Source: Gammaproteobacteria bacterium
GTDB taxonomy: Bacteria > Pseudomonadota > Gammaproteobacteria > JAJFKG01
DNA length: 64,000 nucleotides
Assembly: GCA_965116795.1 (NCBI GenBank)
Contig: OZ220716.1
Location: 1,770,503-1,834,502, forward strand
Reading direction: 5' to 3'
Positions 23,001-24,073 of this stretch are shown piece by piece. The position numbers and the translations under genes are program-made. The notes beneath the pieces are model-generated. The model did not search any database, was not told the origin of the DNA, and saw only the letters and a program-made list of their open reading frames with translations. The stretch's first letter is position 1; each line of letters starts with the position of its first letter.

Positions 23001-24073
23001 GACGAGATGAGTACCTTAAACAGTTCTCCGAGAGACGATACGCCAACCCATTACGACATTATTTCGACAGAATAATATCAAATTATAAATTATCCGAAGA
23101 GTATCAAGTTCAAGGTATGGGCTCAACGTTAAGCAACAGTATCAGTAGTTTCTTTACAACTTCTCGTATTAAACCAACGTTGGTGTCTACAAAGACAAGT
23201 GTACTAAAAAGCGCACAGGGATTATCACCACGACAGCTACGACGGCAAAATGAGCTGACTAAAGCCTGCGCAGAAGCAAATTTAGAGCGTGTAAAACAAT
23301 TGGTGGCACAAGGTGCGAATTTAGTGATGCCTGATGAAACAGGTCAACAACCATTAGCTGCTACTCTCTGGGAATTCTCGTTCAATGTCTTGCAGTATTT
23401 GGAAGAACAGATACCGTACACGAATGGAGATTGGCAGATGGTGGCAGAATGGTTACAAAGACGAAATACGCGTGTGTTGCCTTTAATTGATTGGCAATTC
23501 TTAGCTCAGCATATATCATCAACTAATACAGGACACATATTTGAATGGTTGCAGGACAAGCGAAACGCAGAAAGGGTAACGAAAGCAGCAATGACATACG
23601 GGGTAAAGCAGGAGGTAAGAACGAATTTGAAGAGATACCTGAAAGGATCGCTCGGGAAACGATGGTTGAAGGATGAGTGGCGGTATATCAACGAAATTTT
23701 CATGGAACCAATAGGTTGTTGGTCGGAAGCATGTGGCGGGATGCAAACGAAACAAGAGATCGAGGACCATTGGGAGAGGTACAAAGAAGAGGGAGGATAT
23801 AACGGACAAACAAATGTGGTTGGCAGAGTCATTATACGAACTTTCGGAGAGGAATCGGATGTTGAGGACTTAGATTGGGAATTGGAATGCGCACGAGACA
23901 CGTACACGGATTTAAGACGAGCCAAGCCGGAGCATAACCCGTACTATGAGGTCAAGCAATTGTCCAATGAGTTTTTGATAACAATGACAAAGGTGTGTAG
24001 GGAACGTGGAGTTCGCATAACGAGTACGGGTGAATTAGAGGCAGAGCACCCCGACGTACCACAACCAAGTTAA
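14003..24073 (+). CDS. Giant multidomain effector-like protein, paralog 1 (two kinase-like domains, ANK, LRR, CE-clan protease, ANK, variable C-terminus)
   Basis: DAKSDN...IDND and DGKPDN...IDND kinase-like motifs; LRRs (LTDLNLSYNQID); ANK (GYTPLQ, GCTPLD); HW...DS...QQRDDNDCG protease motifs. Confidence 0.85.
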   Translation: MKKSNVSTTTEQVNPHAIEQIVRMLHQHRGELEAIYAGLPSSDSRAKDIDGLLWHLAIDTKDNRDEEIHTRVAGFLRNGGTIDVMQQSIDHAKRTLPPPSANVKQKSDNSKHKLRDIKHDVLPTATNSRQTLQNQNATSEIEELQLVEQHLTELMGAGQQTLRQRFHHLAEDKQGLQRDTVSEQLAELSLIRDEILSDDGSHGEFQQHINAIRENCLPPNQLARQASPIEAALATAIATLERALIYVHAPTTHWRSKNRALHILHALTDSYKAEQQTFVRLASNPNTHEQYQQAVVAYADLVNVAILGGNRYLLPAPIARKLLCINQYGELEKSNETGQHAVCSAKGIHYKPQQRESTPDDPDISPGKEYAIGSLLQLIAGEQLVAAPTMLLDIQKVPIESKQGAFVPRFLQAGLTIDGILLRDYLFLQDGLNIWGKQIGSQPLANIVDDAHQGFKDSIKSVQEAFPDLLGAYQAFCQHQQGKQALSAHENASQYRIKKLNLVRELYSAFQEIVKASNVPNILDDGDDLHQLKQVEVSLSTIDDQCDKTRGVLRNKFDEWIELYFNKKDTNFPNDTINTFMVLLYIMHANPQLCGKSIKELLPDSVTRIDGALTCWRKIAGDGNILSDFAHDAEHGFPETTRVIQSDFPTLYHAFQNFKRHRNNPANTASFQQHQQSLIQELYNTFVTIYEAHQLFDDAQQHKRLLELKDLQQGNLPEVILVEWVNDYFMEEDIAGANDINSFMVLLLVLKDNPILMENRSISQLLPGKATRLETATERWQQFGVDSKTIDHVEVEKYINEHYPQLIQAYQTFQQWVNYPTSAQYNTTKQHLVDVLLKGLYQTDKALAKNDKHSVKEIEETNSQLYQQTLNCYGIVKDWVESYLENHEKKVHEKSGDNANPFLNLLGILKQHPTLISLGHPVSLLVDHIKTFHYVHNLFPSLPSFKGLSPTERAIQESRLLLTKKYLDQAALSALWLGQLLCLPTDAKSDNFMLTLTYHTPTQIKIGSNRGKHQPSHTATKQSSTSNLYRCRLVSIDNDLGLTMPFEKRGENFILRHIKNILLSIPELRECVLSARVRENFLAMPAKQQWLTWLSIVARRDIHFTHWMSQSAVSMSLNKQQTSIDFPVSLDQHVIDFILDRWQTLQKHIENTPKTTLLGLTNYLYPAVSFLYEARLKKITCDEIHQGRPLVAEDEQARNRQGDLLFQRRITPNSSSYYVKSAQAHSQQGQKRILAQHFLYDDILLDLQWHTMTSSERWVYLSSLALLPQLIKSSWIKQTQTSKDTDAITLALQHGLKHAIQTARPLIVYQLLKLGAQLDQLPSAILKLAGDDSYCQQVDNYLDLFCTSVAQGDYYTSYEQVNLMTAVLFSQGKQLINEYNSQGYTPLQQCVNQAIDLSVMSAQKRQMMLTLLDKFITHGAHLEAKDSYKHETILDKVCKLSAYPLKIDWFIALIERGAGIHANPDKIMAFINKWPRQTVQRHVALLGLLSERNLGLQWKLSQRIWQQSTARSNKKAIPVNGIATKETVLFKAAQIQLAKEIKKPSATHTSAENDTSAYGRRVVKRIKTNIDKATSKSNSALIPCAVDWYFKLYPEMPGVEMAVTTFSDMLFGYHTAPHELLALDTHKAPYPALTSQTVLGENLQTVLNTLTQNASAPALGKHQADVVKASKMLHSLHPRYLSEQIILAMLLNPEDGKPDNFQLIKILDGSENITGDPCYRLVGIDNDHAFIQTATLSTDKATVGEVELQMKSVLFCFDQMRQPIDSAVRARILSIKLEDNQQRHEQSFLQQWLESSILKQYEVAILTLFNEVTRKQLFERGVERWSEVWRFGKLKRLKKDCPVVLQIPFHQEMISGLYRRFAKLKALLTTCPTITHLKLLEELDPVAGVFYRGAFQHYPQPLKIFERFHTVAAQSYEQLAHNQLSTVTTSKVALEESGLSDEKVKAIYKDSTVNEMSLQQAIETLRETVASCQYEALLSEKLAVGNEEELETFLNQHQLDKLQSWFMQLTALKIKLNPSNTADKSRQERIIDIILNVNTNNHIQKLHLENCMTLTDKQLEKFLKNSPMLTKLTVINCSELTSAIFNSMSEHLNVLESLRIRQLLVEEMDVSSEFVQLERCDISHNPALNRIDVIAPMLRKARIHENRALTQVELTSERLSLLNLSLNPAMTDQAMIDAVKPHPLMSLNLYGSQHANSILPTVLFQENSLLAVSGILTGAEKWLAQFEQSLDDEIVTLVAVPDTFTGAEKWSTPFRQCLNAEMVTLDIDTLQTNLVLQEAVKIVLGKNSKITTLNINVIELTAELLDLLIEESKKHKSVCNMQLSYQMTHIDDLANKLKVLFTENPGLVINGHTAQSMQDFEKSYMENDQHNSTITFKKDTLTSIDLTLLLQHICNKSLETITIQYQQLSDSHNLAAGLHAITQTQPNLRSLMVNGVEYIELITAVAQQSCDLWEMTLQPFEQELVINSLKANHHITQLNLSVTGFDDKRALLLASSLNASNGLRNSLVKLNVSSNKVTNDGAHYLMAGLQHNNTLTDLNLSYNQIDNFSRSTVINPVFKYNYTLLSVNLESNPIRQQAQLDELSKKLKRNQQLVQSTSKSLQVGEITTVIKQCKQGVSPYTEFPPQSQHSLLHVVAQLGQLDVMQYLLLSYTLCLDLKNEVGCTPLDEAVNAGQFVMAKLLQHPQKSSYLAQTHTTAISKINVFQGSHQVREKNQRSYDKQLDPQRIHFSFTEQFGELNSDRLHTLSDPWQTTLQNIHGELTISDFNDVPIATSWMNDAQIKRLLFDCFSLSDGPDKTGGIYYIPHMNKSPCDSDIAIAREVAFEVAKQICGYYSNQGEQEELYPGLVSSGNELDKPVVMIWNTETVLAEQSSQIDKSGGRHWQTCVILPKNYCPYYGGPLENDTELVYFVDSKYPERTMPNSLKQMLTTDNPYGEEYTFECEGYIYEFSVGEQKYSHRIANPFSIQEKQFITCQAHQQRDDNDCGYWAVYNAIMLVCTGRDEYLKQFSERRYANPLRHYFDRIISNYKLSEEYQVQGMGSTLSNSISSFFTTSRIKPTLVSTKTSVLKSAQGLSPRQLRRQNELTKACAEANLERVKQLVAQGANLVMPDETGQQPLAATLWEFSFNVLQYLEEQIPYTNGDWQMVAEWLQRRNTRVLPLIDWQFLAQHISSTNTGHIFEWLQDKRNAERVTKAAMTYGVKQEVRTNLKRYLKGSLGKRWLKDEWRYINEIFMEPIGCWSEACGGMQTKQEIEDHWERYKEEGGYNGQTNVVGRVIIRTFGEESDVEDLDWELECARDTYTDLRRAKPEHNPYYEVKQLSNEFLITMTKVCRERGVRITSTGELEAEHPDVPQPS

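Follow-up and report, generated by a model that had tools for sequence, protein, structure and literature searches.

A T-poor gene tail beside a UG4 reverse transcriptase suggests a locus-specific mutator that takes its own locus as template

Layout of the locus

The window discussed here, a 64,000-nt stretch of contig OZ220716.1 from a Gammaproteobacteria bacterium, carries two giant genes in tandem (paralogs 1 and 2) and a reverse transcriptase (RT) gene of the UG4 family that converges on paralog 2. The 3' parts of both giant genes are poor in T at silent sites, have lost their mutual likeness, and face copies of the same RT gene end. The features below are given in window positions.

14003 to 24073, plus strand: paralog 1, 3,356 aa (open reading frame (ORF) call; weak leucine-rich repeat (LRR) and ankyrin matches in Pfam), likely a Dot/Icm-type effector
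23450 to 24073, plus strand: tail of paralog 1, T-poor, G-rich and hyperdiverged, at +43 to +666 nt when counted from the Trp codon of the remnant (composition, identity to paralog 2)
23506 to 23925, minus strand: antisense ORF, apparently a by-product of T loss and not a gene by present evidence (ORF list, simulation)
24096 to 24134, minus strand: 39-nt remnant from the 3' end of the RT gene (34/39 positions shared with 33470-33508), without the double hairpin
24172 to 33135, plus strand: paralog 2, tandem copy, 2,987 aa (ORF call; paralog comparison)
32644 to 33438, plus strand: T-poor tail of paralog 2, with an in-frame stop at 33133-33135, past which the frame stays free of stops for 100 codons that carry the skew as well
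33326 to 34432, minus strand: UG4 RT, 368 aa, YMDD, intact (Pfam RVT_1; PADLOC RT_UG4; alignment)
33507 to 33569, minus strand: structured element and candidate cis-acting site, with hairpins at 33544-33554 and 33521-33541 and an outer closing stem

Offsets are counted from the last conserved Trp codon of the RT (33491-33493; 24117-24119 in the remnant). Paralog 1 ends at +43, whereas the stop of paralog 2 lies at +355 and its frame stays open for 100 codons further, to +52. The bodies of the two paralogs share 88% nucleotide identity (81% at four-fold sites), and nucleotide identity drops from 0.85 to <0.5 beyond 23450/32644. The 100 open codons past the stop of paralog 2 have P=0.003 from base composition, and this stretch is weakly like the paralog 1 tail, with 15 of 500 shuffles equally good. 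The stop may be a recent nonsense change within a zone of mutation.

Silent-site composition of the two tails

The sequence-only reading had described the paralog 1 tail as depleted of T and C at silent sites, and its base counts were all reproduced exactly: A25, C9, G18 and T7 at four-fold third positions in 23582-24073, T 15/44 and G 4/44 in an upstream control stretch of the same gene (21602-21920), and an overall T fraction of 0.193 in the tail, given there as about 19%. The tail differs from the body of paralog 1 (four-fold T 355/1164) in both T and G (Fisher p=0.0018 and p=0.028). The T part of the description is therefore sound, but depletion of C is weak (four-fold C 0.12 vs 0.17), and the control stretch is unusually G-poor, four-fold G in the body being 0.18. 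At two-fold sites, T in NNY codons falls from 0.71 in the body to 0.53 in the tail and G in NNR codons rises from 0.29 to 0.49. The paralog 2 tail, with similar silent T, has four-fold counts of A21, C3, G23 and T6 (p=0.0045 for the skew), and its two-fold sites go from 0.72 to 0.48 (NNY-T) and from 0.27 to 0.44 (NNR-G).

The skew is also extreme against the genome. Among the last 163 codons of the 1,124 genes of at least 250 aa, the paralog 1 tail has the lowest third-position T, the fifth lowest four-fold T and the fourth lowest four-fold pyrimidines; the paralog 2 tail is third lowest in four-fold T and lowest in four-fold pyrimidines. It is an extreme value and not a unique one, because 9 of 5,341 in-gene windows are as poor as the paralog 1 tail by third-position T and 64 of 5,341 by four-fold T. 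Those 64 windows are what a chance extreme of tail composition could appeal to. That both tails rank in the top five for four-fold T while facing the only two copies of the motif speaks against chance, and the recurrence of the pattern in other phyla (below) refutes it, so that this explanation hardly needs to be entertained.

Silent-site T climbs with distance from the motif at 24097 within 1,500 nt in paralog 1 (Spearman 0.19, p=0.001), as it does from the facing copy in paralog 2 (Spearman 0.23, p=3.5e-5), and is flat inside the first 700 nt. The gradient for which a test had been proposed thus exists over the longer span only. Third-position composition in paralog 1 has its best change-point near 23171, and transversions between the paralogs make up 29/61 of the differences in 23100-23460 vs 266/845 in the body (p=0.015). 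The antisense ORFs were expected to be by-products of the skew, and for the longer one (23506-23925) simulation bears this out: an antisense run of 145 codons without a stop arises with P=0.12 from the codon use of the tail vs 0.007 from that of the body.

The main explanation that gives the RT no part holds that the tails are ordinary polymorphic domains, exchanged through recombination and maintained in variety by selection, with the RT as a hitch-hiker and the skew as the codon usage of a donor. It can point to other T-poor, G-rich genes in the genome. These are mostly skewed over the whole gene and lie without the motif, and T at NNY sites is 0.69 in the G-rich genes vs 0.53 and 0.48 in the two tails. 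A donor's codon usage had been named as an observation that could overturn the initial claim; instead, uniform codon use fits both tails best. Five further giant paralogs that lack the motif keep a tail four-fold T of 0.23-0.46. Further evidence on both sides of this explanation comes from related loci.

Several genes of this genome are G-rich and T-poor at four-fold sites along their whole length or a large part of it, with normal T at NNY sites, and perhaps come from a foreign pool (contig C1: 1099259-1105785, 1154086-1162254, 1198366-1212846, 1551791-1553755 and 1931144-1935637). Several of the five other giant paralogs have internal T-poor, G-rich windows with no RT motif nearby.

A reverse transcriptase of the UG4 family

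The window RT belongs to the UG4 family, an assignment made from sequence profiles. PADLOC RT_UG4 matches with 357 bits over 304/307 positions and the next model with 128 bits; the UG4 profile is thus the best match, on a core of about 280-350 aa with no added domain and with the YMDD motif in place. The two other RTs of the genome have no RT_UG4 match at E 1e-22. By alignment, the conserved part of the protein ends near 33470 and the remainder is a variable extension; in UG4 relatives, the C-termini past the conserved W..W..G end cannot be aligned and vary freely in length. Cyanobacteria, planctomycetes, Desulfobacterales and Legionellaceae hold relatives at 38-52% identity; those on enterobacterial plasmids are about 30% identical to the window RT, and the four that were scanned are UG4 as well. 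Among 40 matches on viral contigs, one is a close UG4 locus. Fimbrial neighbours, common in UG4, are found beside the enterobacterial relatives; in the window the neighbours are ankyrin/LRR giants and EamA. In same-genome comparisons (L020 vs L025, L087 vs L088), RT copies are mosaics of identical and diverged blocks, which suggests gene conversion between them.

Against profiles of solved structures, the best matches are group II intron RTs (E 5e-32), and the G2L4 RT is matched at E 1.9e-17. The NCBIfam group II intron model gives 119 bits, below its cut-off of 300 bits, and Rfam returned neither a group II intron nor any other relevant family on 6 loci. The RT start is only 100 nt from the next gene. 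A Pfam scan found no nuclease domain.

The reverse transcriptase 3' end and its remnant

The motif at 24097, to which the sequence-only reading had tied the skew, proved to be a 39-nt copy of the RT gene 3' end, and the tie to the RT and the motif is upheld. The genome holds only these two copies, with no others found by nhmmer or a search allowing 4 mismatches. The remnant region folds no better than shuffles (z -0.3), and selection on the remnant, once considered, is not supported, since its conservation is at the level of neutral sites (p=0.21).

The intact RT end differs in that it carries the structured element, whose fold has z -5.0 (0/200 shuffles as good). Both hairpins are 91% paired across 132 loci. 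For hairpin 2, 719/792 are paired vs a column-shuffle maximum of 686, slid controls reaching 0.22-0.56; the distal outer stem gives 522 vs a shuffle maximum of 453. Compensatory pairs are present in the window copy, and conservation across hosts extends to third codon positions at -64 to -31. The window copy of the region folds alike on either strand (-20.7 and -20.9 kcal/mol), and a G-U pair conserved at one position in 109/132 loci can pair only on the RT-sense strand. Such pairs point to RNA of that strand. An identity of the hairpin with group II intron domain V was considered and dropped for want of Rfam support.

Of the 141 anchored loci, 77 of which had 2.5 kb of downstream sequence, 10 hold a further copy of the RT 3' end. 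Four of these copies begin downstream of the 5' arm of hairpin 2, like the window remnant, and one locus (L024) has the same layout as the window. Separately, in L061 (+91..+128) and L097 (+103..+150) the RT end is followed directly by another short copy of the hairpin region. A second adhesin-like gene stands upstream of the RT in L194 (1690-2838) and L192 (2131-2901), and these plasmid records have 2-4 places that match the RT; such genes are possibly extra targets with remnants.

Mutations downstream of related reverse transcriptases

The comparison covered 161 RT loci, 141 of them anchored; after removal of 7 near-duplicates and the window, 103 had 1 kb of downstream sequence. By mechanical ORF calls, the first downstream gene is convergent in 59, co-directional in 23 and not called in 21. 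The clearest cases are pairs of nearly identical plasmids. In an E. albertii pair, 12 of 13 substitutions over 28.4 kb fall at +164..+361 (binomial 1e-20), and 3 of the 12 are synonymous from the translations. In an E. coli pair, 3 of 5 substitutions over 37.4 kb fall at +267..+340 (binomial 2e-5). Six E. coli plasmids compared over 6,975 nt differ only at +267 (synonymous from the translations), +332 (three alleles) and +340, plus a homopolymer indel. An E. marmotae pair has 7 differences in the kb before the anchor and then 76, 101, 48, 24, 13, 6 and 0 per 250 nt, and 120 of its 223 mismatches are A/T, A/C or G/T transversions. In an Erwinia pair whose RT is truncated, 3 changes lie at +292..+458 and 3 more within the 3.3 kb upstream.

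Convergent loci follow the same course. The RTs of one pair (L025/L045) are identical over 800 nt, and the downstream DNA has 20-51 mismatches per 100 nt at +100..+500 and 0 at +600..+800; in another (L040/L054), 27 mismatches per 100 fall to 1-2 by +1000. The tandem copies of L070 and L078 have the same shape of divergence. Mutations cluster at +100 to +500 and fade by 1-1.5 kb in convergent and co-directional loci alike: the position of the zone is set by the RT 3' end and not by the direction of the neighbouring gene.

These profiles bear directly on domain swapping. In its favour, targets in other loci include PEP-CTERM, eCIS-core, RHS/Tc-like and fimbrial proteins, and most RT pairs above 85% identity have unalignable DNA downstream. 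Swapped domains fit poorly with isolated point changes, some of them synonymous, and a site with three alleles in plasmids that are identical elsewhere, with a smooth decay that runs on into non-coding DNA, and with a variable end that is C-terminal or N-terminal depending on which end of the target faces the RT. Taken with the composition of the tails, these observations make domain swapping an unlikely account, of slightly lower standing than the DNA-templated mechanism considered below.

Base bias across loci

The sequence-only reading had equated the loss of T in the tail with a loss of A on the RT-coding strand. Convergent loci agree with this: four-fold T in target ends is 0.166 vs 0.247 in other genes of the locus (lower in 25/36, p=0.002), with G and A higher, and in 33/42 loci the RT strand has fewer A than T between the RT end and the target stop, a gap that may in part be former coding sequence, as in the window. 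All seven long convergent targets have less four-fold T close to the RT than at a distance, two of them marginally. The skew of the window is thus typical of convergent UG4 targets. The equation does not extend to eight co-directional targets, and target four-fold T converges instead of only falling, dropping in AT-rich hosts and rising in GC-rich ones (L130, 0.04 to 0.23). Co-directional targets have lower NNR-G in 8/8, from 8 of 13 chosen loci. Pooled composition downstream of 65 RTs is weakly shifted. Because co-directional targets gain silent A and convergent pairs involve T more, loss of A is not a general strand rule, and the base bias as read from these alignments appears to follow no single one.

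Fresh changes were tallied by hand at +0..+500 in co-directional loci only and are unpolarised. RT-strand A is involved in 15 of 20 (p=0.035) and T in 3 of 20 (p=0.005), and 5 of 20 are at non-A positions; all six mismatch types are common in relatives.

The bias and the zone together frame the main mechanistic rival, in which the UG4 RT needs no RNA template and works as an error-prone DNA polymerase where the hairpin has set a nick or break, as described for the group II-like G2L4 RT in break repair. A zone fixed by the RT 3' end whatever the direction of the target, a bias that does not track the RT strand across orientation classes, and a hairpin region that folds equally on both strands in the window would all suit it. 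The conserved G-U pairs, which suit RNA, the asymmetry of fresh changes between A and T on the RT strand and the lack of a nuclease domain in Pfam argue the other way. It is considered improbable, if the strongest of the alternatives.

The initial reading had invoked the adenine miscopying of a diversity-generating retroelement (DGR). The matching alternative is a classical or decayed DGR that copies from a remote or lost template repeat. An RT that adjoins variable gene ends, the loss of RT-strand A in convergent loci and the share of A among fresh changes are in keeping with it. The RT, as noted, is UG4 and not of the DGR clade; a 328-aa RT structure entry, presumably the Bordetella-type DGR RT, is matched at only E 3e-18. 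No template repeat was found by blastn (word size 7) in the genome, a single contig that is 97.7% complete, and a whole-genome scan with 18 windows of 60 nt, tolerant of changes at A or at T, did not do better than shuffles of the queries (best matches with 5-11 disallowed mismatches vs 9-11). Avd is likewise absent from the genome (0 matches to PF22296). The available text on the Bordetella enzyme reports change at about 50% of adenines and at 0-0.5% of other bases (PMC6182149), against which 5 non-A changes in 20 are too many for adenine specificity. All four bases change in relatives, and the zone is about 1 kb long, with indels. The adenine-miscopying claim is accordingly not supported, and a DGR of this kind is very improbable. 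By membership, the window system is not a DGR, though it works like one.

Proposed mechanism

The reading preferred here, to which we give a probability of roughly 60%, is that the T-poor tail is the footprint of repeated error-prone copying by the UG4 RT over about 1 kb past its own 3' end, without a separate template. The RT would bind the hairpins in its own mRNA and copy the read-through RNA, making errors at every kind of base; its cDNA would then recombine back into the same locus and replace the same DNA. Since every round would overwrite its own template, the sequence of the zone would drift without reset; with no fixed template it would therefore drift to a composition independent of the host and lose recognisable homology, as both tails have. 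In the window, the tandem duplication likely copied the giant gene plus only the last 39 nt of the RT, so that paralog 2 would face the full RT and paralog 1 the remnant. The paralog 1 tail is somewhat more likely a frozen product than one still being hit, because the remnant is without hairpins. Priming on the target's own mRNA at a 3' UTR motif was considered and dropped because co-directional targets vary at the 5' end.

Several observations weigh against self-templated copying. The causal role of the RT is inferred from comparison, in which its link to the mutations is well supported. The 34/39 identity of the remnant is no higher than neutral paralog identity (p=0.21). The proximal (inner) part of the outer stem finds no support (477/924 vs a shuffle mean of 475), the hairpins overlap conserved codons, and the related loci are not independent, kinship inflating the pairing counts. 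Silent RT-strand A in co-directional targets is higher than in neighbouring genes in 7/8 and equal in 1/8, and the 148 mismatches of convergent pairs touch RT-strand T more often than A (0.061 vs 0.044). Plasmid pairs L192/193, L239/240 and L197/241 are identical and show no excess, L242/243 differ by one indel, L190/191 have only 1 of 5 differences in the zone, and L143/144 have none before +800; three metagenome pairs are identical and may be the same strain. Finally, selection shapes the divergence profile, because the targets are surface or effector genes.

Relation to known systems

UG4 (unknown group 4) RTs belong to class 2 of the UG/Abi family. They are described as found beside fimbrial genes and on plasmids, with no defence enrichment and of unknown role, in the available text of PMC9226505; fimbrial neighbours are put at 66% in that of PMC8934634, and the fimbrial association with an unexplained role also appears in the available parts of PMC4244168 and PMC8632793. 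Simon and Zimmerly reported two UG4 copies more than 90% identical in one genome whose 3' flanks had no identity, and in the accessible text read this as possible mobility (PMC2602772). The window RT is of the same protein family as these published RTs. The parts of the published accounts available to us describe no hypermutation, gradient, RT 3'-end structure, remnants, or convergent effector or PEP-CTERM targets, and no UG4 mutagenesis appears in the titles and abstracts of the literature searched, whose coverage leaves out subscription journals.

Like the BPP-1 DGR of Bordetella, UG4 loci place an RT by surface or ligand-binding genes and show local hypermutation, a lean towards adenine and extra targets marked by a copied cis piece. 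Unlike a DGR, they have no invariant template repeat or Avd and an RT of another lineage, and their zone of about 1 kb is graded, lies at either end of the target, changes at all four bases and includes nonsense and indel changes. The G2L4 RT, which is reported to act in break repair, is likewise a stand-alone RT with a non-mobile role, and its profile match to the window RT is weak; the window RT is of a different family. With group II introns the RT shares its best solved-structure matches and a structured RNA near the ORF end; it differs in its score below the NCBIfam cut-off, in the lack of an Rfam intron match and in having neither ribozyme domains nor a full maturase. We know of no locus-specific mutagenesis by the G2L4 RT.

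The RT is of a known family, and likely has a new kind of function. The balance tips slightly towards the wider proposal that UG4 RTs are a second, widespread class of diversity-generating retroelement, in which one gene, with an RNA hairpin of its own, would rewrite any sequence up to about 1 kb downstream, the locus would be its own template and copied pieces of the 3' end would extend the action to further paralogs. If true, UG4, which has stood without an explanation since 2008, would gain a function, and targeted mutators would include one that works without a template repeat or accessory protein. This would account for UG4 copies that have upstream DNA in common and unlike DNA downstream, and for the adhesins beside them. 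Adhesins, PEP-CTERM proteins, eCIS cargo and Dot/Icm effectors could evolve new ends without limit, and loci of rapid surface variation could be flagged in plasmids and effector repertoires. Because the system comprises one gene and a 60-nt structure, the mutator claim is directly testable with a neutral reporter.

The giant paralogs and other features of the window

The giant paralogs are likely type IVB (Dot/Icm) effectors, since the genome has DotI/IcmL (E 2.9e-52); their own Pfam matches are weak ankyrin and LRR matches only. On the question of a C-type lectin or Ig fold, as in DGR targets, the paralog 1 tail gave no Pfam match and a single-sequence structure model of pLDDT 39.7. For the C-terminal part of the giant gene, no homologue was found among proteins of 1,845-5,873 aa or in 2 other genomes of the family, and an atlas search gave a best score of 0.77, a lead at best. 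The UG4 RT is absent from both of these genomes, so there is no close relative of the window locus. A promoter and terminator scan gave no more matches than shuffles. The five further giant paralogs, at contig C1 positions 1252672, 1304068, 1340580, 1359078 and 2062671, are about 32% identical over a shared central part of 1,280 aa.

The first 1.6 kb of the paralogs (14003-15600 vs 24172-25800) are 93-98% identical and the rest about 85%, which suggests recent gene conversion between their 5' parts; paralog 1 has an extra stretch near 15650-16500. At 22640-22990 and in the paralog 2 counterpart, His, Asp and Gln..Cys occur in the order seen in Ulp1/C48-type cysteine proteases; Pfam gave no match. 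Related hairpin repeats with 45-nt arms lie at 10668-10800 and 13806-13947, just upstream of an ankyrin gene (11100) and of paralog 1. The region 35626-39222 resembles an integrated element at a tRNA-type site: it holds an AbiEi/AbiEii toxin-antitoxin pair bracketed by a direct repeat of 100 nt (36291, 39123) and a third, shorter copy, and there is an AbiEii-like fragment near 35900-36240. Two inverted palindromic repeats of 181 nt, 91% complementary and resembling miniature inverted-repeat transposable elements, lie at 49789-49969 and 55109-55289.

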